This document shows, in pieces, positions 3-12,112 of a DNA stretch of 48,617 nt. The notes below the pieces were generated by a model, which did no database searches, had not been told where the DNA came from, and saw nothing but the letters and a program-made list of their open reading frames with translations. The DNA lies in the NCBI GenBank assembly GCA_016215205.1, contig JACRKU010000029.1, positions 1-48,617 of the forward strand. The letters are read 5' to 3'. The position numbers and the translations under genes were made by a program. The first letter of the stretch is position 1. Each line of letters starts with the position of its first letter. This DNA is from Candidatus Yonathbacteria bacterium. Its GTDB lineage: Bacteria; Patescibacteriota; Minisyncoccia; Phycocordibacterales; UBA1550.

Positions 3-1682
3 AATCCGAAAAGCAAGGAACATTTTTTCTTTTTGGGGTTGCCGAGTGAAGCGAGGCAGTGGCGGAACGATACGAGCGTACGATTTAGTTTCAAGCCACC
101 ACGCGCTCCGCGCGTGCCTCATTCGGGATTCTGCTGGAAATAAGTCCGAACTTTTTGGTATAATGACCACCAAAGATGATTTTTTGTCAGCAAAGTGCTG
201 ATTTAGTTCGTAGATGACTCCTAATTTCGTGGTTCCAAATCCTTTACCACGCTCATACGGCACACCCTCGGGGAATACCAGCTTCTGGAACTTCGGTTGT
301 AGTTGTGGCACAAGGTCAAACCATTGTCGGCCAAGGTCGGTTATAAACTTGGTGGCATAAATTAACGCGGCCTCAATATCAAATTGCTCAATCCTTGCTT
401 CGCTTAGGGAAATCTTGGTAGTGGCAAATTCGTTCTCCATTTCTTCTTTACGTTCAACAAATTCCTCTTTGGTATAGGACCCGTCCTCTCGCATTTCGTA
501 GATACGTTTTTTCTTTGCCTCGATAAGCTCTAGTTGTTTTGTCCATTTCTCGGCTTCAAGTTCAAACTTCTTACCTTTCTCTTTCCACGCATCGAGTACG
601 CTCTCTTTAAATATCTGTAGCCAATTTTCTTTTGGTGTTATCCGTTCCAGATGAGCTAAGAACTCTTTTTCAAGTTCGAGTTTTGGTATGCCTTTGCCAA
701 ATACGGCACATTCTTTATTTAGGCAGTGGTAATAGGAATATCGGCCACCATTACCTCGAGGCGAGCTTCCGGTGAGTGCCCTCGAGCAAACTCCGCACAT
801 GACCGTTCTTCTAAGAGGAAAGGTTGGATTATATTTGTTGTACTTCATCATCGGCCTCTTTTTACCGGATCGGATAAGAAGAACCTGATACATTTCTTCT
901 TTCGTGATCATTGGCTTATGTTGACCATCGACGTCTTTGCCAGTCCACGGATTGGCAATTATGCCAGCATAAAACTTTAGGTGTTTGCTAAAGAGTCTGT
1001 CTATCAGCTGGGGAGTACTTTTCTTGCCGGTGATATCTTTCAAACCCCACTCATCTAGCTTGCGAGCTAGTCCTACTTGGGAGTGCAGTCCCATACCATA
1101 TTCTCTTAATCCTCGTTGAATGATTGGGAATATCTGCTCATGTGGCGGATCAGGTTGAGTCTTTTTCTCACCACGCTTCTTGAAGTTGGCACACTTATAT
1201 CCTATCGGTGGCTTCCATGGGAATATGCCTTGGTTGATTCGTGCCATCATTCCATCACTACAGCGTTGCTTACGTATTGCATTATCAAATTCGGCGATAC
1301 CGGCAAGGAATGTCTCTAATAATTTTGCTACAGGTTCATTGCCGATTGGCTCGGTAACGGAATGAAGGGTAACTCCATAGGTTGCGAGGATTTTTCTTAT
1401 GGCGAAGTGGTCATCGGCATTTCTAGCAAATCTATCTACACGCAAAACAACAAAGGCTTGGACCTTATCTTTATTCTTGCGACAAAATTCCAACGCCTCA
1501 AGAAATTTCTTTCGGTTCTGAAGACTCAAGTCTTTTGCGCTTTGGCCTTCCTCGCAAAAAACTAGGTCAATTTCAAGACCTTTTTCTTTGCAGTATTTTC
1601 GGCAAAGTTCCTCTTGGTGTTCCAGTGAGGTTCCTTTTACCTGTTCATCGCTTGATACTCTTGTGTAGATTACTGCTTTCAT
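3..1682 (-). CDS. Large serine recombinase (resolvase + recombinase + Zn-ribbon + coiled coil); open to the window edge, so absent from the ORF track
   Basis: Manual translation from ATG 1682: MKAVIYTRVSSDEQ (catalytic Y-x-R-V-S-S), LRVDRFARN, GIFPWKPPIGY, CGVC...HCLNKEC Zn ribbon, then KSSLV at 182-168. No in-frame stop in the stretches I translated, including 3-242. Confidence 0.92.
   Translation of the reverse strand, partial: MKAVIYTRVSSDEQVKGTSLEHQEELCRKYCKEKGLEIDLVFCEEGQSAKDLSLQNRKKFLEALEFCRKNKDKVQAFVVLRVDRFARNADDHFAIRKILATYGVTLHSVTEPIGNEPVAKLLETFLAGIAEFDNAIRKQRCSDGMMARINQGIFPWKPPIGYKCANFKKRGEKKTQPDPPHEQIFPIIQRGLREYGMGLHSQVGLARKLDEWGLKDITGKKSTPQLIDRLFSKHLKFYAGIIANPWTGKDVDGQHKPMITKEEMYQVLLIRSGKKRPMMKYNKYNPTFPLRRTVMCGVCSRALTGSSPRGNGGRYSYYHCLNKECAVFGKGIPKLELEKEFLAHLERITPKENWLQIFKESVLDAWKEKGKKFELEAEKWTKQLELIEAKKKRIYEMREDGSYTKEEFVERKEEMENEFATTKISLSEARIEQFDIEAALIYATKFITDLGRQWFDLVPQLQPKFQKLVFPEGVPYERGKGFGTTKLGVIYELNQHFADKKSSLVVIIPKSSDLFPAESRMRHARSAWWLETKSYARIVPPLPRFTRQPQKEKMFLAFRI
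156..164 (+). promoter_or_regulatory. Extended -10 promoter motif TGGTATAAT pointing at the left junction
   Basis: Perfect TGn-TATAAT; predicted start ~170-171. Confidence 0.5.
167..170. repeat. Candidate left attachment core (CCAC, context GACCACCA)
   Basis: Shared with GTCCACAA at 12107-12114; lies at integrase codon 505. Confidence 0.65.
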
Positions 1683-1755
1683 ATTTTTGTAAGGCCTAGA
1701 TTGCAAACACACCCTATACTATTTCTGTCGACAGGCTAAGCTCGGTTGCCCACAG

Positions 1756-2187
1756 CTACTTACTGGTGCTTTTCCGCTTTATTTTCTCTAGTATCTTTTC
1801 AAGCTCGAGATACTGCCCGGTGCCATCGGCTTCATCCTCCGGTTCTTTGTTCACTCCAGTTTTGCCAAAGCAGTAGTCGAGGATAGTTTTAGCGGCTCTG
1901 AATTTCATTGTATCTTTTTTACTTCCCATGAGGGCAATGATCATGGTAGCGGCCACCTCGACCTTTTTCTTAAATATACTATCGACCACTGAATCGCACA
2001 TTGCATTCGTTTCCTTTTCGTAAGCATCGTACTCGTCTTTGAGTAAGCCACTCGGGCGGAACCACCTTTTTACCGTCACCGGCGAGACTAGGAGTAATTG
2101 TGCTATTTCGGGATAGGAAAATCCCTCGTATTTGAGATGAACTGCTTTCTGGTATTTTTGATTTTTTATGTCTATTGTTTTTGTCAT
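1756..2187 (-). CDS. HTH protein resembling a phage terminase small subunit
   Basis: N-terminal HTH (GFSYPEIAQLLLVSPVTVKRWF) plus TerS-like helical motif AATMIIALMGS..DTMKFRAAKTILD..FGK. Confidence 0.5.
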   Translation of the reverse strand: MTKTIDIKNQKYQKAVHLKYEGFSYPEIAQLLLVSPVTVKRWFRPSGLLKDEYDAYEKETNAMCDSVVDSIFKKKVEVAATMIIALMGSKKDTMKFRAAKTILDYCFGKTGVNKEPEDEADGTGQYLELEKILEKIKRKSTSK

Positions 2188-2191
2188 ATGG

Positions 2192-2307
2192 GTATCATTT
2201 AGTATCGTTTGTGGTAATTAACTTTCTCGTTTTTGGTGTTAGTTAGTGTTAGTTGGTGTGAGTACTTTTCCTCAAAATGTTGCCGTTTGTTGCGGATTGT
2301 TGCCGAT
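2192..2307. repeat. Three arrays of 10-bp tandem repeats (candidate iterons/origin)
   Basis: GTATCATTTA/GTATCGTTTG (2192-2211); GTGTTAGTTA/GTGTTAGTTG/GTGTGAGTAC (2236-2265); TGTTGCCGTT/TGTTGCGGAT/TGTTGCCGAT (2278-2307). Confidence 0.75.
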
Positions 2308-3105
2308 TTAGCCACTTTCACCGGCTATTGTGAGGAGTGAGTTAAAATATGCACCCTTCTTTTGGATCGACCTTTCTGGACTATCACGCATGAGCTTGTA
2401 AGTTTGCTCAAGCTTGGCCAATCCATGCTTTCGGAGTGCTGAAAGCATGAAGCTCATATCAACTTCCTCTAGGTACCGAGCAATCTCAAGACACTTCTCC
2501 TCTTCAAAGGTTCTTGGACTGAAACTTCTTACGGGACGACGAGTCGATCGATTGTTTTTATTTTCTTTCTCGTTATCGTTCTTAGGACTTCTGCCAGACG
2601 AACTTTCAGAAGTGAAAGAAAACCTTTCTACCAAAGCATTTTTATCGCTTTCCAACTTCTGCCGAACATCACCTACTTCTGTCGGTGCCTCTGCCAGAGA
2701 TTGCTCATCAGTAGCGTCCACACTTCTGCCGGACTTCTGTTCAAAGCGATGTTCAATATACTTAAATGTGCCGTCGGATAAGGGATAATTGCCGATATCC
2801 ACATGGAACGAACTTCTGCGACCTTGTTGTCCAGCAAACCATACCCACTTCTTCCGCTTAAGGTTTAACATCAGCCGGTTGATATGGTTCTTGGAGTATT
2901 TCTCTTTGAAATCTTTTGAAAGACCGGCATAACTTACTTGGGCCCGGCCGTTCCGGGGATTGGCGTTGACCCAAAGCCAGACCAAAACCGAGTATTCTTC
3001 AAACTTCAAATAACCGTCTACAAGGGCGGTTTTAATGCTTCGGGGAAGCTTTACGTAGTCGTTATTGTCTATTTTGAAGGGTAGATTTTCCATATTCATA
3101 TTCAT
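2308..3105 (-). CDS. Putative replication initiator (N-terminal wHTH, low-complexity linker, small helical C-domain)
   Basis: YVKLPRSI..EEYSVLVWLWVNAN..SYAGLS..INRLMLNLKRKKWV wHTH and C-terminal SIQKKGAYFNSLL, typical of phage/plasmid Rep architecture. Confidence 0.55.
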   Translation of the reverse strand: MNMNMENLPFKIDNNDYVKLPRSIKTALVDGYLKFEEYSVLVWLWVNANPRNGRAQVSYAGLSKDFKEKYSKNHINRLMLNLKRKKWVWFAGQQGRRSSFHVDIGNYPLSDGTFKYIEHRFEQKSGRSVDATDEQSLAEAPTEVGDVRQKLESDKNALVERFSFTSESSSGRSPKNDNEKENKNNRSTRRPVRSFSPRTFEEEKCLEIARYLEEVDMSFMLSALRKHGLAKLEQTYKLMRDSPERSIQKKGAYFNSLLTIAGESG

Positions 3106-3120
3106 TCGGCCGGACCGGCT

Positions 3121-3384
3121 TTAATTCATCGCATCGTTATACATAAGCGATTTAAGTTCTTTAATGGCCGACACAAATTCCTTAGCGTTGACTTCGACCA
3201 AGCCCGCAAAGAAAGCGCTTACCAACTGGGGACGATCCGGTTCATTGGTAAAAATAAAATGAAACCGGCGTGAGTCGGCTTTGTCTATGCCCAGCAATCT
3301 ATATCCCTTGGCGACGAGAAAAGCGGCCGCGTAGAAGTCGCTGGTAGTAAAATTATTGTTGTCCGGCTGGTTTTTCATTTTCAT
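3121..3384 (-). CDS. DUF5659-like small protein
   Basis: FTTSDFYAAAFLVAKGYRL.GIDK...RFHFIF...FFAG.VEVNAKEF..AIKELK matches my recollection of this CPR-element family. Confidence 0.65.
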   Translation of the reverse strand: MKMKNQPDNNNFTTSDFYAAAFLVAKGYRLLGIDKADSRRFHFIFTNEPDRPQLVSAFFAGLVEVNAKEFVSAIKELKSLMYNDAMN

Positions 3385-3547
3385 TATCTTTAACTTCTTT
3401 TTCTTTCTTGGTTTTTATTCTTTCTGCGTGCCACTGTTCGAAGATGACTTCAGCGAGCATAAAAAATCCGTCTCTGATTTCCTCGATTTGTTTATCAGAG
3501 AGCTTGGGATCGTTAACCAATTCTTTTACCCGCTCGACGCTTAACAT
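3353..3547 (-). CDS. Small hypothetical element protein
   Basis: Likely start ATG 3547 (MLSVERVKELVNDPKLSDKQIEEIRD); overlaps the next gene in operon fashion. Confidence 0.55.
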   Translation of the reverse strand: MLSVERVKELVNDPKLSDKQIEEIRDGFFMLAEVIFEQWHAERIKTKKEKEVKDNENEKPAGQQ

Positions 3548-3678
3548 GTATTCATCGTATCGAGATGGGTGCGCCTCTTTACATACTCTTTCGCTGAATT
3601 TGCAACACAAAAAAGACGACTGTTTTAGTCGCTTCGGTAGAAACTTATTAACAAGTACCTTGAGAGTATCTTGCGATC

Positions 3679-4350
3679 CTATTCCTTTTTGAGAATTACA
3701 TTCGGATTAATCCGGTAGCCTGAATCCTGCCAGCCCACAATAAATTCGGATACTTTCAATTTCTTATGTACCATGCGCTTTATGGCCTGCACCGCACTTT
3801 GAACTGATTTGATACTTGAAAGATCAGTTAAATCAATTAGAGTTTTGGTCGGGATATACTTCCGGCTTGTCATCAAAGCCATAACAAGCTTCATTCGTCC
3901 GCTCGAGTTCTCCATACGGAAAGTATATTGGCTTTTAGGCTCACGATATAGTTCGCCGTCGGCTGATATGTAAACAGTGACCATTGGACCGGCCGGAGCT
4001 ACAGCTTTTTTCGTTAATGCCTCAGCTAAAGAAATGGCCGCTTGTCTGGCAAATGTTTTTATAAAATGTTCGTCATATTCAGTCAGTCCTTCAAACTTGC
4101 TTGTCCTGCGCTCTAAAAGTACACGAATACTTTTTACTTCATGTTTTGTTTCAACGATCTCCTTCGTCAGATCGATGATTGCTGATTCATTCTTTTCAAT
4201 AACCTTGTCAGCTTCAAGGATACCAGCCGATTCCAGCGATGACCGGAGTATATTTTTGGTATCCCCAATAGAAAAGGTATACCGGCTTTCTATTGCTACT
4301 TTTCTTCCTGTTGATGTGACAGGTTTAGTCTTTTTCATTTTCATACTCAT
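3679..4350 (-). CDS. Protein with C-terminal OmpR/PhoB-type winged-helix DNA-binding domain
   Basis: C-terminal KLVMALMTS.KYIPTKTL...SVQSAVQAIKR...FIVGWQDSGYRIN. Start is probably 4350, 4344 or 4338, downstream of the leftward promoter. Confidence 0.6.
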   Translation of the reverse strand: MSMKMKKTKPVTSTGRKVAIESRYTFSIGDTKNILRSSLESAGILEADKVIEKNESAIIDLTKEIVETKHEVKSIRVLLERRTSKFEGLTEYDEHFIKTFARQAAISLAEALTKKAVAPAGPMVTVYISADGELYREPKSQYTFRMENSSGRMKLVMALMTSRKYIPTKTLIDLTDLSSIKSVQSAVQAIKRMVHKKLKVSEFIVGWQDSGYRINPNVILKKE

Positions 4351-4366
4351 TTTTACTCTCAAAACC

Positions 4367-4417
4367 ATTATGACAAAAGACGGCGATTTTGACAATGAAC
4401 TTGGAAAGGGATAAAAT
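4367..4417. promoter_or_regulatory. Back-to-back sigma70 promoters with overlapping -35 boxes
   Basis: + strand: TTGACA(4389-94)-N17-TAAAAT(4412-17). - strand: TTGTCA(4395-90)-N17-CATAAT(4372-67). Confidence 0.7.
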
Positions 4418-4448
4418 GCTATCAAGACTAAAAAGTCAGTTTAATTTT

Positions 4449-4640
4449 ATGGCCGAAATCGAAAAACTTTTAACCATTGAGGAAATCGCCGAGATATTGC
4501 GAGTGCATACTCGCACCGTAACCCGATATATTGAATCGGGCCGGTTGAAGGCATCCAAGCTGGGAGTCTGGAGAATCAAACAGTCTGATCTGAATGCTTT
4601 TCTTGAGGAGACCAGTAACGTAAAGAAAAAGAAGAAATAA
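4449..4640 (+). CDS. Excisionase-family HTH_17/MerR-like DNA-binding protein
   Basis: LLTIEEIAEILRVHTRTVTRYIESGRLKASKLGVWRIKQSDL; ATG 4449 lies downstream of the promoter. Confidence 0.85.
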   Translation: MAEIEKLLTIEEIAEILRVHTRTVTRYIESGRLKASKLGVWRIKQSDLNAFLEETSNVKKKKK

Positions 4641-4643
4641 TAT

Positions 4644-6191
4644 ATGGCATCACTAAACTGGATTGGAAAAGAAGCTGTAGTAAACCACGATAAGGAGGTG
4701 CCTTTTAAGTTGCTGAAGAAGGTTAAGACAGCATCCGTTGGTGACAATTCTCAAAATCTTATAATCCACGGCGATAACTTGGAGGCCTTGAAGGCATTAA
4801 TGCCTCATTACTACGGCAAAATAAAGTGCATTTATATCGATCCACCTTATAACACTGGTAATGAGGGGTGGATATACAACGATAAAGTTAATTCTCCCAA
4901 AATCAAGCAGTGGCTCGGTAAGGTTGTTGGCCGAGAATCAGAAGATTTAACACGGCACGATAAATGGCTTTGTATGATCTATCCTAGGTTAAAACTGTTA
5001 AGAGATTTACTGACAGAGGATGGTTCTATCTTTGTTTCAATCGATGATAACGAGCACTGCAATCTACGGTTGGCCATGGACGATATCTTCGGGGAGATAA
5101 ATTTTGTAACGACCATAATTTGGCAGAAGAAATATACACAAAGTAACGATGCAAAGTATTTTTCAAATACGCACGACTTTATTATTTGTTATGCAAAAAA
5201 TAAAGAAAATAAGAATTTCAAAATAAACCTTCTGGCCAGAACAGAGGAACAAGATGCACGCTATAAAAATCCCGATAACGATCCTCGTGGAGTCTGGATG
5301 ACGCAACCTTTGCACGCAAAGAGTGGTACGGATAAAACATATGAGTTCACTTTCTCAAACGGTGTAAAGTGGAAACCACCCGCTGGCACGTTCCCTCGCT
5401 ATAGCATCAATACCCTAAAAGAAGCTGACGCTGGAGGCACAATTTGGTTTGGAAAAAATGGGAATGCTGTTCCTCGCCTTAAGAAATATCTTGCTGAAAT
5501 GAAGCAGGGCGTGATTCCTAAAACAATATGGTTATATGACGAAGTCGGAAGTAACGATGATGCCAAGCGAGCTATAAAACATCTTTTTGATGATAATCCT
5601 TTTGATTCTCCAAAACCTCCATCATTAATTAAGCAGATCATTAAACTTTCTAGTAATCCCGACGATACAGTTTTGGATTCGTTTGCTGGCTCTGGCACGA
5701 CTGGCCATGCGGTTTTGGAGTTGAATAAAGAGGATGGCGGTACTCGCAAATTTATCATGGTTGAGATGGAGGATGTGGTAGCAAAAAATATAACTGCTGA
5801 GAGAGTCAAAAGAGCAATTAAAAAATATGGTTACAAGGATGGTTTTGAATACTGCGAGCTCGACAAGCCACTTTTTAACGAACATGGCCAAATTGAAGAA
5901 ACTTGCGACTTTAGACAGTTTGCTACTTATATTTATTTTACTGAGACCCAAACGAATATAGACCCAAAGAAAATTGATGAGAATTTCATCGGCGAACTTG
6001 AGACAACCGAATATTATCTACTCTACAAAGGTAAGAATAAGAACGATCTTGATAAGTCATTTCTCAAAAAGATTAAGGATACCGATAGCAAGAAAGTGAT
6101 ATACGCAGACCGGTGTCTGATTGATGACGATACGCTCGCAAGACACAATATCGTCTTCAAGCAGATCCCTTATGAAGTAAAAGTCTACTAA
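4644..6191 (+). CDS. mod: Type III restriction-modification methyltransferase (N6-A, beta class)
   Basis: IIHGDNLEALK, motif IV IYIDPPYNTG, motif I VLDSFAGSGTT; directly upstream of res. Confidence 0.92.
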   Translation: MASLNWIGKEAVVNHDKEVPFKLLKKVKTASVGDNSQNLIIHGDNLEALKALMPHYYGKIKCIYIDPPYNTGNEGWIYNDKVNSPKIKQWLGKVVGRESEDLTRHDKWLCMIYPRLKLLRDLLTEDGSIFVSIDDNEHCNLRLAMDDIFGEINFVTTIIWQKKYTQSNDAKYFSNTHDFIICYAKNKENKNFKINLLARTEEQDARYKNPDNDPRGVWMTQPLHAKSGTDKTYEFTFSNGVKWKPPAGTFPRYSINTLKEADAGGTIWFGKNGNAVPRLKKYLAEMKQGVIPKTIWLYDEVGSNDDAKRAIKHLFDDNPFDSPKPPSLIKQIIKLSSNPDDTVLDSFAGSGTTGHAVLELNKEDGGTRKFIMVEMEDVVAKNITAERVKRAIKKYGYKDGFEYCELDKPLFNEHGQIEETCDFRQFATYIYFTETQTNIDPKKIDENFIGELETTEYYLLYKGKNKNDLDKSFLKKIKDTDSKKVIYADRCLIDDDTLARHNIVFKQIPYEVKVY

Positions 6192-6195
6192 TACT

Positions 6196-8463
6196 ATGGA
6201 ACTTAAAAAATACCAAAAAAATACATTAGAAACGCTCGAACAATTCTTGAAAGAACTGCGTAAGGCTGGCCTCAAGTATGCTTTTATGGGCATCACTGAA
6301 AAGCCCTATCATGCCGAGGCATTTGGTGAGGTTCCTTTTGTTTGTATTAAAATCCCAACCGGTGGTGGAAAGACCCTCGTAGGTTGCCATGCAATAGAGA
6401 AAATTATGACTGGCGCGCTCCATCATAAGTTGGACCGAGGGATAGTGCTTTGGTTTACGCCCTCTGAAGCAATCAAGACTCAAACACTCAAGAAGTTTAA
6501 AGACCGGAAAGACTGGCATCGTAGGGTTCTTGATGAAGCGTTTGATAACAGCGTAAAGGTATTTTCAAATGAAGAAGCATTGAGTATTCGCAAGGAAGAT
6601 GTAAACGATAATCTTTGCATCGTCATCTCCAGCCTTGAGGCGTTCCGCAAAGAAAAATCTCTCCAGAATAAGTACAAGGTGTATCAAGAAAACGGTACAC
6701 TCCTGACTCATTTTGAGAACATAGACGAGCCGGATTATCTTGAGCGTGACAGTGAAGGATCGGTAATTAATTCACTAGCAAACGTTGTCCGATTGAGTAA
6801 TCCGCTTATCGTGATCGATGAAGGTCATAAAACGACAACCAAACTATCAATTGATTTCCTGAAAGACTTAAATCCAAGCTTTATTGTTGAATATACCGCA
6901 ACACCACGCAGTGAGAGTAATATTCTGGTTGAGATTCATGCTTCAGAACTTAAGGATGAGCAGATGGTGAAAATTCCTATTGTGCTTGAGAGTTCGGCTC
7001 AATGGCAGAATTCAGTGACTAGAGGAATTGAGAAAAGGATTGAACTTGAGAAGGATGCTAAGAAAATTAAAGGAGAATATATTCGTCCGATTGCTCTATT
7101 GCAAGCACAGCCTAAGAGCAAAGACGGTCATACTGTTACCGTTGAACATATAAAAGATTTCTTGCTTGAACGAAAGATTTCAGCCGACGAAATTGCGATC
7201 AAGACTTCCGAGAAAAATGAACTTGAGGGAGTCGATCTCTTTAGTAAGAGTTGCAAAATTCGTTACATCATTACTGTCAATGCTTTGGCAGAAGGATGGG
7301 ACTGTTCCTTTGCTTATATTCTTGTCTCGGTTGCCAACCTTGGATCAAAGATTGCAGTTGAGCAGATTATCGGACGCATCATTCGTTTGCCTTATGCAAA
7401 AAGGAAAGCTAATGAAGACTTCAATAGGAGTTATGTCTTTGCTTCGGCAAGAGACTTTAACGAAGCGGCCGGTCAAATCATTTCCGGACTTGAAAGTAAC
7501 GGATACAGCAAGTCTGATCTTATCAGTGCCGACAAGAAAGATGCGACTTATGAGCTCGAAGCTAAAAAGGCCGTATCCGATGTGCTCAAGGTGCCGATGA
7601 TGGCCCTCGAAGGCGATCAGTTATCTTTTGAGGACTTGATTGGAAATGACTTTGAGCTTGCTAACCAAGATCATAAGTTCGAGTTCCAAATCCATTACGA
7701 TAATGATGGCAGAGCGATTATTGATATCCAGAAGGACAATGAGTGGATGCGTGGAGCCCAGATGTACTTGAAGTTGCGATACTCCGATAAAAACTATACA
7801 AAAAGTGAGCTGGTGCAGTGGCTGGATAAAAAACTGCGTTTTCCGTTACTCGAAAAATCAGACAAGGTGAGCTTTCTTGATAAAGCTATCGAGTATCAGC
7901 TTAAAACCCGTACTCTATCCGAACTATCCGTAAACCGTTACGTATTGGCTGATCGAATGAGCGAGTTTATTAATGGGGTTCTGGAAAAGTACGCAAAGGA
8001 AAAGTTTGATACGCTTTTACAAAAGAAGAAAATATCAACGAAGCCATTTGAGGCTTTCCCAAACACCATCTCTCTCAAACAGGCGGTGCCACAAGAATTC
8101 AATAGAAATTATTACGAGAAGATAGATAAGCTCAATGGTGAGGAGCTGAGTTTCGTCCAGCGTCTCGATCTGGACACTCTCCCCAACATTAAGTATTGGG
8201 TTCGTAGCCGAGAAAAGGTTGATCCGTTTTATATTCAGGGCTGGAAGCGAGGTAAGTTCTATCCCGATTTTATTGCGGTCACAAAGAAAGGTCAGATTAT
8301 AGCTCTAGAGTGGAAGGGTGCGGACCGGATCAGTAATGAAGATACAGCCTATAAGATAGAAATTGGAGAAGTATGGTCGAAGCTCGGTGGAGGAAAACTA
8401 CACTTTTTCTTAGTTCATACCGGGAATGTTGAAGAGACGCTAAGGGCGGTTAAGGAACTATAA
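6196..8463 (+). CDS. res: Type III restriction endonuclease subunit (SF2 helicase + PD-(D/E)xK nuclease)
   Basis: Walker A IPTGGGKT, VIDEGH, YTATP, LAEGWD, EQIIGRIIR, C-terminal FYPDF...LEWKG. Confidence 0.9.
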   Translation: MELKKYQKNTLETLEQFLKELRKAGLKYAFMGITEKPYHAEAFGEVPFVCIKIPTGGGKTLVGCHAIEKIMTGALHHKLDRGIVLWFTPSEAIKTQTLKKFKDRKDWHRRVLDEAFDNSVKVFSNEEALSIRKEDVNDNLCIVISSLEAFRKEKSLQNKYKVYQENGTLLTHFENIDEPDYLERDSEGSVINSLANVVRLSNPLIVIDEGHKTTTKLSIDFLKDLNPSFIVEYTATPRSESNILVEIHASELKDEQMVKIPIVLESSAQWQNSVTRGIEKRIELEKDAKKIKGEYIRPIALLQAQPKSKDGHTVTVEHIKDFLLERKISADEIAIKTSEKNELEGVDLFSKSCKIRYIITVNALAEGWDCSFAYILVSVANLGSKIAVEQIIGRIIRLPYAKRKANEDFNRSYVFASARDFNEAAGQIISGLESNGYSKSDLISADKKDATYELEAKKAVSDVLKVPMMALEGDQLSFEDLIGNDFELANQDHKFEFQIHYDNDGRAIIDIQKDNEWMRGAQMYLKLRYSDKNYTKSELVQWLDKKLRFPLLEKSDKVSFLDKAIEYQLKTRTLSELSVNRYVLADRMSEFINGVLEKYAKEKFDTLLQKKKISTKPFEAFPNTISLKQAVPQEFNRNYYEKIDKLNGEELSFVQRLDLDTLPNIKYWVRSREKVDPFYIQGWKRGKFYPDFIAVTKKGQIIALEWKGADRISNEDTAYKIEIGEVWSKLGGGKLHFFLVHTGNVEETLRAVKEL

Positions 8464-8477
8464 CTAGATGCCCAGAC

Positions 8478-11400
8478 ATGCTTAACAAACATGCTATTAG
8501 ATTCAAAGAATCCTTATCCGACTTCAGGATAATAACAGCAAACCTAGTGGTGCTGGTTAAAACCGCCTTTTTAGGTATTTTAAGTGCGGAAATTTGGGGC
8601 TTATCACTTGCCATCGCCTACAAGTTGAACGGATGGATTTCTTCCAATGACTATGAATATAAAGCAATAGCAGTTTGCGTTGCAGGTACTTTGTTTCTAG
8701 TCGCATACCTGCTGGCACGTGGAGTATTTGCTGACTCAAAGAAAATCATCCGAAGTTGCCGTATTGATGTGCTAATCATCTTCTGCTTCGGAATCTGGCT
8801 CAGTATTGCGTGGGGTGGTTTTCTATCGATATGGATTTCAAAGATCGTTTCCTCTGTTAACATTACTCAGATACTTACTATCCTTTCCGGACCTTTTATT
8901 TTGGGGACTCTAGTGATGGGACGGCAGTTGCTTTGGAAAGATAAGAAGACTGATTCTTCGCTAGTTACTGATATCGAGCTCAAGAGTAGAGATAACGATC
9001 TACTAAACTTTACGGGAAAAGCCAATGCATTTGCGGAGCGTGTATTCAACGGAGGATCACCAGAGAGCTTCGTGTTCGGGGTTGATGCTCCTTGGGGAAT
9101 AGGTAAATCAACTTTTATAAATTTCTGCAACGAGTACTGGGAGGAGAAGTACACAGACGGAGTGGTAGTTTATAAATTCAGTCCACTTCGATATTTGGGA
9201 TCGGCAAATTTGCTGGAGGTCTTTATTGATGGCTTGATACATGCCATTCAAAAGAATGCATTCATCCCTGAAATAAAACCCTTAATATCTCGCTACACTC
9301 GCTTACTCAAAGAGATAAAACGTTTTTCGCTATTCGGTTTTACTCTCCCGACCTTTGTAGTGGACTATACAGCCGACGAGGCATTCGACGACTTGAGTGC
9401 CGTTCTAAAACGATTTCCAAGGAAAGTCATTATAGTTATTGATGACTTGGATCGAATCAGTTTTGCAGAAATAAAAGACATACTGTTTGTTATAAGAAAA
9501 AGTTTTGCATTTCCGAATGTTTCGTACGTCATTTGTTATGACACAGAGAACATAGGCGTACTTGAAGCCGATTCTCCCGATGTTGAAAAGGTTGGTGAGT
9601 TTTTAGAAAAGTTTGTGAACATAAAAATCAGCTTGTACTTAGATAGAGAAGACTTGAAGAACTATGTGTCGGAGAATCTTGAGAGTGCACTCACTACGAG
9701 TATTGTCGATCCCTTGCCAGTGCGCCAGGCAATTGGAGGACTACTCGAGATATACGACTCGTCAATGTATCACAGGTATCTCCCTTTTATTGGTGATGTA
9801 AGAAAGTTGAAACGGCTCATCAATACCGTCATGATGTTTGACCTCCAGTCCACGGACTTTCAAAGTAGTGATTTTAATAAACGAGACTTGGTAAATCTTT
9901 TGCTCATCTATATCCATTACCCGAGCGTCTTTAGAAAGATTTATGATACTGAGACAAAGGGTGGTAGAGGATTTTTCTCATTGGTAATACCTTACGATGA
10001 AGGTTATCCGAAAGATGAAACAGGGACACGAGGAAGATCGTCATCTTCTGATTCTTCCTACAAGAATTCAACCCACTATCACGACTACTTAAAAGAGCTG
10101 GAATTTACTGAAGACACCCCTCAGCGTTTTCTTTTAGACCAAGTATTTAATGTGGACGTACGCTTGAAGACCGATAAAAACAGTCTCTATGGTAACGAAT
10201 ACGCTAACATAGATAAAATCCCAGACGATGTACGCACTTCGCTCGCCTGTTTTAACGGTGGTTGGACAAATGGCAGGAATCTTGAGACGTATTTGGATTT
10301 AATTGTGAACCTCTCAAAACCTGTCGATGTTGATCAACATAAATTTTATACTCAATGGAGAGATAAAATAATTAATAAAACAGTCACCATTGATACTGCG
10401 TTTGCAGATGAAAAGTTTACATATAGTGAGGGAGAGAACAGGAGAGAAAAGCTGTGGCGTATATTGGTGAACAACGCACGAGAATTGCCAAGTGATATTG
10501 CAAAAGAAATAATTACCTATCTTTTGAAGACAATACCCGAGTATTCCTTACTTGAAATGGGAGACCCAAATGTAGGAATGGGATTGCGACACAATTTGGA
10601 TTATTTCCTCACCAGACTACTGAACGATGCCGGATGGATTGATCCACAAGGTAAACATTCAAATAATGTTCAGCCCCACATCGCTGAAATTGCCGAATGG
10701 GTTTTTGGCGAAGGTAGACACGCAGGCAGTGGTGTACTCGCAACACTTTCAGAAGAAAATCGAGGTGTATTAGGAATCCACGACTTACTACTTTTTAGGT
10801 TATCTTGTAGCGCAGACCGTGGAGGCGACATCTTTGATTTATCTCGAGCCGTTGCAGAACACGCAAATCAGAACGCCCCCTCCGCAGGTTCTACAAGAGA
10901 TATCGCTCGTGAAGAGATGCGTGAGATATCCCAAAGGGTGTTCGAGATATTTAATACGAGATACATTCTTCCAAAGAAAAATATCTTTGCAGAAATTGAC
11001 GCTCTACAAACATCCAATCTCGTTGGTAAATATGACAACTTTCTTAAGCAGAAGATTACTGATGGCATATTCCAAGCTACGGACATAGACAAGAAATCCG
11101 TTGAGCTAAAAACTCGTGTGGGTGCTTTTATTCTGTACCAAATGGCGAACGCAGAAATCAATCTCGGAGCCGGATGCGGATTTTATGATCCTACCGGAAC
11201 TGAGGATAAGCACACCATCAGAGACTTAGTTAACGATTATCTTTTTGAACACTGCTTTGACCCAAAGAAAACTAAAAACACGGAATACTTCATTGACTAC
11301 TTGTTCAGAAACTTTGCTAGTGCATTTGCTTCTGCACGAGAAGATGGATTGAAATATATACCAAGTATTAATGAATTTATCAAAGTGTTGGATAAGGTGA

Positions 11401-11615
11401 AGCTTTCAACTTTTTGGCAGAAACATGGTACAACTTTCAAAAACCTTAAACTTGAGGATAAAGAAAAAGTCGTATTCGTGGGTAACGATGAAGCTTCGTA
11501 TAAAAAATATGTCCCCATGGTTTATAAAGTCTTAGACGATAACGTTACCGAAGTCACAAAAGTAGCCCCAACTTCTGTTGTGATTCCTGCTTCTAACCCT
11601 GTTATTGATGCCTAA
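8478..11615 (+). CDS. KAP-family P-loop NTPase with N-terminal transmembrane helices and a long uncharacterised C-terminus
   Basis: About 4 hydrophobic segments in the first 155 aa, Walker A GVDAPWGIGKST, Walker B VIDDLDR, FLEKFV and DVRKLKRLIN KAP motifs. Confidence 0.88.
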   Translation: MLNKHAIRFKESLSDFRIITANLVVLVKTAFLGILSAEIWGLSLAIAYKLNGWISSNDYEYKAIAVCVAGTLFLVAYLLARGVFADSKKIIRSCRIDVLIIFCFGIWLSIAWGGFLSIWISKIVSSVNITQILTILSGPFILGTLVMGRQLLWKDKKTDSSLVTDIELKSRDNDLLNFTGKANAFAERVFNGGSPESFVFGVDAPWGIGKSTFINFCNEYWEEKYTDGVVVYKFSPLRYLGSANLLEVFIDGLIHAIQKNAFIPEIKPLISRYTRLLKEIKRFSLFGFTLPTFVVDYTADEAFDDLSAVLKRFPRKVIIVIDDLDRISFAEIKDILFVIRKSFAFPNVSYVICYDTENIGVLEADSPDVEKVGEFLEKFVNIKISLYLDREDLKNYVSENLESALTTSIVDPLPVRQAIGGLLEIYDSSMYHRYLPFIGDVRKLKRLINTVMMFDLQSTDFQSSDFNKRDLVNLLLIYIHYPSVFRKIYDTETKGGRGFFSLVIPYDEGYPKDETGTRGRSSSSDSSYKNSTHYHDYLKELEFTEDTPQRFLLDQVFNVDVRLKTDKNSLYGNEYANIDKIPDDVRTSLACFNGGWTNGRNLETYLDLIVNLSKPVDVDQHKFYTQWRDKIINKTVTIDTAFADEKFTYSEGENRREKLWRILVNNARELPSDIAKEIITYLLKTIPEYSLLEMGDPNVGMGLRHNLDYFLTRLLNDAGWIDPQGKHSNNVQPHIAEIAEWVFGEGRHAGSGVLATLSEENRGVLGIHDLLLFRLSCSADRGGDIFDLSRAVAEHANQNAPSAGSTRDIAREEMREISQRVFEIFNTRYILPKKNIFAEIDALQTSNLVGKYDNFLKQKITDGIFQATDIDKKSVELKTRVGAFILYQMANAEINLGAGCGFYDPTGTEDKHTIRDLVNDYLFEHCFDPKKTKNTEYFIDYLFRNFASAFASAREDGLKYIPSINEFIKVLDKVKLSTFWQKHGTTFKNLKLEDKEKVVFVGNDEASYKKYVPMVYKVLDDNVTEVTKVAPTSVVIPASNPVIDA

Positions 11616-11616
11616 A

Positions 11617-11799
11617 ATGAAACGCCAGTTCAAAAAATTACCAGAAAGTATAGACCTGCAAAAAGCCGAAGAGATATTTTCGGACCGGTTAGCCGAGCTT
11701 ATTGTTATGACGCTGGATTATCAGTATGAGCAGAAGCTTAAAGCCAAGGCCGATCCAAAAGAAGATGTGTCGGGTGAGGAAAAAGTTAAGCAATTATGA
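11617..11799 (+). CDS. Small hypothetical protein
   Basis: ORF abutting the KAP stop; helical, charged (EEIFSDRLAELIVMTLD). Confidence 0.45.
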   Translation: MKRQFKKLPESIDLQKAEEIFSDRLAELIVMTLDYQYEQKLKAKADPKEDVSGEEKVKQL

Positions 11800-11808
11800 C
11801 TCAGTGTA

Positions 11809-11839
11809 ATTTGCTTAACATCGCTTGAGTTAAGCAAAT
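11809..11839. terminator. 11-bp inverted repeat (terminator or protein-binding site) ending the rightward operon
   Basis: ATTTGCTTAAC-N9-GTTAAGCAAAT. Confidence 0.5.
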
Positions 11840-12013
11840 CGTCCCACGCTCTCAAATTTGGTCTTACGGCTTGGACCGGGTGCAATAGGTGTCAAACATT
11901 TACTCTTGGCACAAAGCTCGCTACAAGGGCAACCAGTCGGGCAGAAAGCGGGTTAGTTAGAGTTGGTTCGGATGAGTACGTTCACAAGGGTCTCAAAATT
12001 CGCTACAATGGCA

Positions 12014-12108
12014 TTATATGGTAGCAAGCTGGGCTTCGTAAGCAGATTTTAGTTGGTGCCAGTCGTATAACTCTCGCATTATTTGGTTCCAGTTAATTTG
12101 TAAGTAGT
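12014..12108 (-). other. Detached 3' end of the integrase gene (31 codons + TAA) at the right boundary
   Basis: After GTG(12112-10) reads DYLQINWNQIMRELYDWHQLKSAYEAQLATI*; in frame with integrase KSSLV when the CCAC cores are joined. Confidence 0.7.
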
Positions 12109-12112
12109 CCAC
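12109..12112. repeat. Candidate right attachment core (CCAC)
   Basis: Partner of 167-170. Confidence 0.65.

Follow-up and report, generated by a model that had tools for sequence, protein, structure and literature searches.

We describe an integrated mobile island of Candidatus Yonathbacteria bacterium that may belong to a family of phage satellites in the Patescibacteria. The stretch of DNA analyzed, called the window below, comprises positions 1 to 48,617 of the forward strand of contig JACRKU010000029.1 (C20) of assembly GCA_016215205.1, a 611-kb genome in 29 contigs that is 95% complete. Window positions 167-12112 (11,946 bp) are one integrated site-specific mobile island with CCAC at both ends. 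Its leftward operon holds, in order, a regulator, a small open reading frame (ORF), a DUF5659 protein, a Rep-like protein, a homologue of the phage small terminase (TerS) and a large serine recombinase, and a rightward operon carries defence genes as cargo. By analogy with phage-inducible chromosomal islands (PICIs) of the SaPI type, a phage-satellite lifestyle is the best-supported reading of this arrangement, and we hold it with moderate confidence (PMC10085698, PMC6739421, PMC9618062). Somewhat more tentatively, the island could be one copy of the first recognized phage-satellite family of the Patescibacteria (Candidate Phyla Radiation, CPR), a phylum-wide family of islands of about 12 kb (the size being that of this island) that parasitize phages with a ParB-TerS-TerL gene order and are main carriers of defence systems. 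The backbone of the proposed family is the regulator, the DUF5659 protein, the Rep-like protein, an orphan TerS and a tRNA-targeting serine recombinase.

ORF, Pfam and PHROG scans recovered, with their coordinates, all genes that an earlier reading of this DNA (the original prediction) had named. Likewise, its claim that the island has no virion or conjugation genes held up in Pfam, PHROG and PADLOC scans, which found no capsid, portal, large terminase (TerL), tail, lysis, relaxase or type IV secretion system (T4SS) gene between the attachment (att) cores. The only phage part of the island is a gene for a 143-aa protein with an N-terminal helix-turn-helix (HTH) at 1756-2187 on the minus strand. 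It matches phrog_2538 end to end at 1.6e-8, with residues 9-137 aligned to positions 4-126 of the 129 in the profile, and the proteins in the same slot of other islands match this profile as well (6.5e-11, 8e-5 and 4e-5). In a tblastn search the protein was 39% identical to gp01 of Enterococcus phage IME197, encoded directly upstream of the TerL and portal genes, and full-length homologues with 41-45% identity were found in two of the 400 phylum genomes searched (G210:C2 and G315:C2). Among PDB profiles, residues 32-133 match the PaP3-type TerS 6w7t with an E-value of 0.0096. The AlphaFold2 (AF2) model (pLDDT 60) has the HTH, a long helix at 50-87, a helix at 92-107 and a C-terminal helix, a predicted pattern compatible with a TerS. 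The top Foldseek match of this model is 2ao9, which is regarded as a prophage TerS, and it is not significant; hence, of the profile and structure comparison suggested for this protein, the sequence profiles agree with a TerS and the fold search does not reach significance. The profile matches and the identity to phage TerS proteins bear out the TerS-like label of the original prediction: this protein is truly homologous to TerS and more than just an HTH regulator.

The position and the evolution of the gene are also informative. In the island, terS adjoins the serine recombinase and not TerL, whereas in the phage homologues (L059, L058, L092-L100, L151-L181 and IME197) TerL comes next. Such an orphan terS is a satellite-type arrangement. 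The island terS genes have dN/dS values of 0.07-0.26, which indicates purifying selection, so the gene is not a relic. TerS and recombinase types reassort between islands: in 131 of the 574 island pairs with TerS proteins at least 75% identical the recombinases are less than 40% identical; conversely, 507 pairs have recombinases with 75% identity or more, and in 44 of these TerS is less than 60% identical. This reassortment argues against a recombinase-specific directionality factor, a role that we considered for the protein and that is disfavoured on these grounds.

The layout recurs far beyond chance. We scanned species genomes and metagenomes with a TerS alignment and collected further contigs through homologues of TerS and the Rep-like protein, and found the same six-gene order in more than 90 Patescibacteria loci (23 in genomes, 50 in metagenomes and approximately 18 on further contigs). 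The protein in the slot upstream of the recombinase is 112-194 aa long in related islands. The scans with the TerS alignment separated 73 island-type from 40 phage-type loci, with zero intermediates. The hosts of the islands include Buchanan-, Falkow-, Komeili-, Yonath-, Magasanik-, Gottesman-, Vogel- and Saccharibacteria, and the closest named relatives of the proteins of the present island are from Candidatus Vogelbacteria, Nomurabacteria and Parcubacteria, all of them Patescibacteria. Several island or phage contigs (L071, L080, L085, L090, L093, L095 and L096) come from metagenome-assembled genomes (MAGs) labelled as Gammaproteobacteria, Methyloversatilis, Verrucomicrobiales, Ignavibacteria or ‘proteobacterium’; these labels probably are binning or labelling errors and do not reflect host range. 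As the original prediction had anticipated for the neighbourhoods of DUF5659, the backbone stays the same and the cargo varies. The cargo is mostly defence, with type I, II and III restriction–modification (RM), AbiEii, Fic, GmrSD, SNF2 helicases, RadC and AAA_14/DUF4143, and one family member (L014) instead carries redox and metal genes of the thioredoxin, DsbD, CsoR and YHS types.

The extent of the island follows from its closest relative and from related genomes. The window contains no long direct repeats that could serve as att sites, as expected for a serine recombinase, and the edges were taken from homology breakpoints instead. On the left, window positions 167-3653 align at 84% DNA identity with the closest relative, L102, and the alignment ends exactly at 167, the first base of the attL crossover core (CCAC, 167-170). 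In L102, the flank beyond this edge is the 3' end of a tRNA-Ala(UGC) gene (ARAGORN), antisense within the recombinase ORF. For the right edge, the joined flanks of the window were searched against genomes of the same genus, and the match in two of them (G006:C2 and G008:C14) begins exactly at 12109, the first base of the attR core (CCAC, 12109-12112); in both, the DNA at this point lies directly 3' of tRNA-Ala(UGC). The two breakpoints confirm the att cores of the original prediction as true boundaries. Beyond attR the host DNA begins with a hairpin, followed from 12209 onward by genes for PIN-PhoH, an ABC binding protein and ATP synthase. A search for an empty site by way of the PIN-PhoH neighbour in another genome (G009) was uninformative, given a local rearrangement there.

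The large serine recombinase placed the island at a tRNA-Ala-type site. Its frame, 3-1712 on the minus strand, matches Resolvase (9e-28), Zn_ribbon_recom (2.6e-5; 24.9 bits, just below the cut-off of 25.3) and phrog_95 (7e-66, over residues 7-439), and relatives of 559-584 aa have both Recombinase and Zn_ribbon_recom domains. By these matches it belongs with the large serine recombinases of the phiC31/Bxb1/A118 type. An integrase had been expected at the end of the operon, and a recombinase is indeed found there, of the serine and not the tyrosine type. It is 96.7% identical to the recombinase of L102. The frame crosses attL into flank DNA, with no stop before the end of the contig, so the integrated copy has a C-terminal tail encoded by the flank. 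In L102 (9272-10876) and about 45 other islands, the recombinase frame enters an antisense tRNA; overall, in approximately 45 of 55 islands the end of the recombinase gene falls within the 3' end of a tRNA gene in antisense orientation, and the target tRNA (His, Asn/Gln, Ala, Lys or Phe) varies with the recombinase cluster.

A phage lineage with related TerS proteins exists in the same phylum and is the candidate helper. The two contigs with full-length TerS homologues (G210:C2 and G315:C2) have the order ParB-like, TerS, TerL (phrog_2), portal-like, major head protein (phrog_1328) and tail fibre, and more distant TerS homologues adjoin TerL, portal and major capsid protein (MCP) genes in G377 and G210:C3. 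The wider scans gave 10 phage-type loci from species genomes, 30 from metagenomes and 3 from IMG/VR, and the phage TerS sequences group in a single supported clade next to those of the islands. Many classes of Patescibacteria contain a strongly conserved phage or prophage lineage (L092-L100, L151-L181 and L194-L196; for example L059:7927-19124) with the order methyltransferase, ParB-like, TerS, TerL, portal, MCP and tail fibre, and several contigs of this lineage measure 34-41 kb, approximately three island lengths. Island and phage occur together in one MAG (UBA12086; L079 and L099), in which TerL was confirmed, and on one 310-kb contig (L133 and L175). Both types are also present in groundwater and sludge samples, for example the Ga0172379, Ga0209542 and Hainich ERZ12926xx sets. 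Two other leads were set aside. A phrog_2 match in the genome studied here is a P-loop false positive that also scores in control genomes, and the phage was seen in 1 of 23 island genomes against 2 of about 400 genomes of the phylum sample, counts that we judged too small to be meaningful.

In PICIs, the island TerS redirects the TerL of the helper to island DNA (PMC10085698, PMC6739421). A satellite of this kind would excise when a helper phage infects the cell or is induced. The excised island would replicate through the Rep-like protein from the repeat arrays next to its gene, and its TerS would bind island DNA and recruit the large terminase of the helper. Island DNA would then be packaged in helper capsids and carried to new cells, in which the recombinase would re-integrate it at a tRNA 3' end. 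The cargo, here type III RM and a KAP-family NTPase, would repay the host by blocking other phages.

A number of observations weigh against this satellite model. Not one of approximately 130 related contigs is circular or permuted, and among them there is no direct sign of excision, circles or encapsidation. IMG/VR contains phage-type TerS only, with no island and no relative of the Rep-like protein, and scans with single proteins gave no match there for the island TerS or the Rep-like protein. In the genome studied here neither TerL, portal and MCP genes nor a second TerS was found, and thus no helper prophage; the TerL of the related phage is present in only 1 of the 23 island-bearing genomes. 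Therefore, of the circles and helper phages that the original prediction proposed to look for, phages with a related TerS do exist in the phylum, whereas no circular contig, no island record in IMG/VR and no helper in this genome came to light. Island and phage TerS proteins are sister clades with about 40-47% identity, so the fit of the island protein to the TerL of any phage of today is putative. We could recognize no gene in the island for a helper-sensing repressor, for capsid size or for interference. The Rep-like protein has no PHROG match and, even with a deep family profile, no significant match in Pfam or the PDB. Finally, terS is missing between the rep and recombinase genes of one family member (L014, 1-12843).

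Several of these observations would also be expected of an island that integrates and replicates and is never packaged. Its TerS-like protein would have been exapted for ordinary DNA binding, for example to regulate an operon, to serve partition, to bind an origin or to assist recombination, and the island would spread by natural transformation, vesicles or generalized transduction. The missing circles and IMG/VR records, the 22 of 23 island genomes without the TerL of the related phage and the ability of L014 to manage without terS all suit this explanation, as do the N-terminus of the protein, a generic HTH like sigma-70 region 4, and the constant position of terS directly upstream of the recombinase gene. 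However, the homology to phage TerS is not confined to the HTH and extends over the full protein, helical core and C-terminal tail included, and the free reassortment with recombinases is unlike a recombinase-specific directionality factor. Furthermore, we know of no TerS function outside packaging, which also counts against exaptation. On balance we regard an island that is never packaged as rather unlikely.

Less likely still is that the TerS homologue is a defence device, a decoy that poisons or misdirects the packaging motor of incoming phages, with transfer of the island independent of it. This would agree with the rest of the island as a carrier of defence genes and with a TerS that is related to the phage clade yet clearly diverged, and satellite TerS systems are known to interfere, as a side activity, with the packaging of the helper (PMC6739421, PMC9618062). 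In the known systems, however, interference and self-packaging are coupled, and here terS sits beside rep and int in the mobility operon, outside the operon of variable cargo. A decayed prophage remnant, or an integrative mobilizable element that uses conjugation, would explain the combination of a phage-derived gene and an integrase, but decay is at odds with purifying selection and with an identical six-gene order, free of any structural-gene fragment, across more than 90 loci from many lineages, and no relaxase, oriT-type or T4SS gene was found in the island. We consider either of these origins very improbable.

The Rep-like protein of the backbone is a putative replication protein of 261 aa at 2308-3093 on the minus strand, counted from a conserved MENLPF start within a 265-aa ORF (2308-3105). 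The label ‘Rep’ comes from its position, a winged-helix-like N-terminus in its AF2 model (pLDDT 56) and the adjacent repeats. The original prediction had also named it Rep, and on this point it did not find support, as neither profile nor structure searches returned a relative of known function. No homology to the replication initiator families Rep_3, DnaD-like and HTH_36 was detectable above threshold; sub-threshold matches were HTH_36 in 6 of 21 family members (best 0.0028) and Rep3_N in 1 of 39 (0.007). The fold search gave no significant match, and tblastn of the Rep-like and DUF5659 proteins against phages and plasmids gave none. At least 179 homologues are 67-88% identical to it, and the family has 400 representatives at 50% clustering. 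The protein is found in approximately 2% of a 400-genome sample of the phylum, and its scores in a distant family of the phylum and in this genome are nearly equal. The near identity of Rep-like proteins across distant families indicates that the gene moves horizontally. A low-complexity stretch, GRSxKNDNEKENKNNRS (residues ~170-190), is almost invariant among the homologues, and its DNA (2547-2585) is 74% identical to an intergenic segment at 2204-2242.

The remaining genes of the leftward operon are also on the minus strand. The DUF5659 protein (3121-3384; PF18903 at 2.8e-13) is found in all complete islands. The small ORF of 85 aa (3353-3610) sits between it and the regulator, and relatives have an ORF of 34-80 aa at this place. 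The first gene of the operon encodes a regulator-like protein of approximately 223 aa (3679-4350) that contains a coiled coil and, at its C-terminus, probably a winged helix; the ORF spans 3679-4425, and the real start is probably at 4350. Its orthologues (197-244 aa) are present in all complete islands, one of them (in L004) with a weak match to HTH_11, and neither Pfam nor PHROG provided a family assignment for the regulator itself.

Two non-coding regions stand out. The intergenic region between rep and terS (2188-2307) is a candidate origin of replication (ori) or packaging site (pac), and Tandem Repeats Finder (TRF) confirmed the repeats that had been noticed there as two arrays with a 10-bp period (2236-2263 and 2278-2308). 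Two further islands (L016 and L018) have repeat clusters of different sequence at the equivalent position of the backbone, and clusters near the rep/terS/int junction recur in other islands with differing sequences and positions. The second region is the right arm of the island (11800-12108), in which the motif found at 2238-2268 recurs at 11952-11982 and at 12049-12063. The motif of the intergenic array, GTTAGTTAG..GTTGGT, thus has two further copies in this arm, and in an excised circle both clusters would flank terS and int, approximately 2.2 kb apart. The repeated motif, GTTAGTTAG..GTTGGT, could represent shared binding sites or a chance match. For the two operons, back-to-back promoter-like sites at 4367-4417 were the best of a regional scan (11/12 on the plus strand, and 10/12 with TG on the minus strand).

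The rightward cargo operon is encoded on the plus strand and is headed by an HTH_17 DNA-binding protein (4389-4640; PF12728 at 6e-17). The original prediction called it an excisionase (xis). Homologues are found in only 16 of 79 islands, scattered over at least four unrelated recombinase clusters, and with such an optional distribution we ruled out a cognate excisionase and dropped the label. The type III RM system that follows (4644-8463) consists of Mod (4644-6191) and Res (6196-8463), with PADLOC matches to MTase_III (1e-187) and REase_III (2e-88). The last gene (8478-11615) encodes a PifA-like KAP-family P-loop NTPase of 1,045 aa (KAP_NTPase at 6e-37, PifA at 5e-27); it starts 14 nt past the res stop, and the domain is assigned only over residues ~183-453.

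The contig begins 166 bases left of the island, and the DNA in these bases is a multi-copy element of the genus and not the expected tRNA-Ala gene. It has five matches in G420 and is also found in G423, G426 and G430. It contains a REP-like hairpin, CACGCGCTCCGCGCGTG, at 74-123, with further copies on contigs C9 and C14 of the same genome, and an extended −10 box, TGGTATAAT. On two contigs (G426:C18 and G422:C18), the element is joined directly to CCAC and the hairpin. No tRNA or other RNA gene was found in the window flank, and this assembly has no tRNA-Ala gene anywhere.

Compared with PICIs of the SaPI type, the island is alike in being a 10-15-kb element integrated at a fixed site, in combining integrase, regulator and replication function with a TerS of its own, in having no other virion or lysis genes, and in carrying accessory defence genes. 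PICIs are not known to use integrases other than tyrosine integrases, whereas the island has a large serine recombinase. No Stl- or AlpA-type master regulator was recognized in its backbone. Capsid-morphogenesis and Ppi/Rpp genes are missing. Nowhere in the island is there a primase or helicase domain, and in place of a primase or helicase replicase it has the 261-aa Rep-like protein with no known relative. TerS is the sole homologous core gene, the host phylum is Patescibacteria, and the island is known from sequence alone. Set against the PICI criteria of SatelliteFinder (PMC10085698), the island has an integrase and a TerS without other structural or lysis genes, and it does not have a primase or replicase. 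Hence, it is functionally PICI-like and not a member of the PICI family.

Integration by a large serine recombinase does have precedents among satellites. The PICI-like elements of Vibrio cholerae (PLEs) and some marine virion-encapsidated integrative mobile elements (VEIMEs; those with a serine recombinase, module 3) integrate in this way, and some carry a TerS closest to that of co-occurring phages (PMC9618062, PMC10085698). However, no backbone genes shared with them were detected, and either their physical presence in particles has been observed or a known phage induces them, whereas the island is known from its genes. Targeting of tRNA 3' ends with the att site inside the recombinase gene is a feature of the island family and not of PLEs or VEIMEs. 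The tycheposons of Prochlorococcus and other tRNA-linked cargo islands are likewise small and tRNA-associated, combine an integrase and a replication module with exchangeable cargo, and are suspected to travel in capsids or vesicles (10.1101/2020.12.28.424599). They appear to differ in their recombinases and replication proteins.

Most of the known phage satellites come from Proteobacteria and Firmicutes (PMC10085698), and in the literature searched we found no description of DUF5659, of this island or of satellites in Patescibacteria. The work adds a set of tRNA-specific large serine integrases and gives two orphan families, DUF5659 and the Rep-like family with its 400 representatives, a context linked to function. 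Given that Patescibacteria genomes are very small, the exchange of defence genes among them is poorly understood. A conserved orphan-terS island with swappable defence cargo, together with a candidate helper lineage, would make this exchange directly testable. If the satellite reading is true, the island would be a parasite of a virus of an episymbiont, and it would move defence systems between symbionts with tiny genomes.

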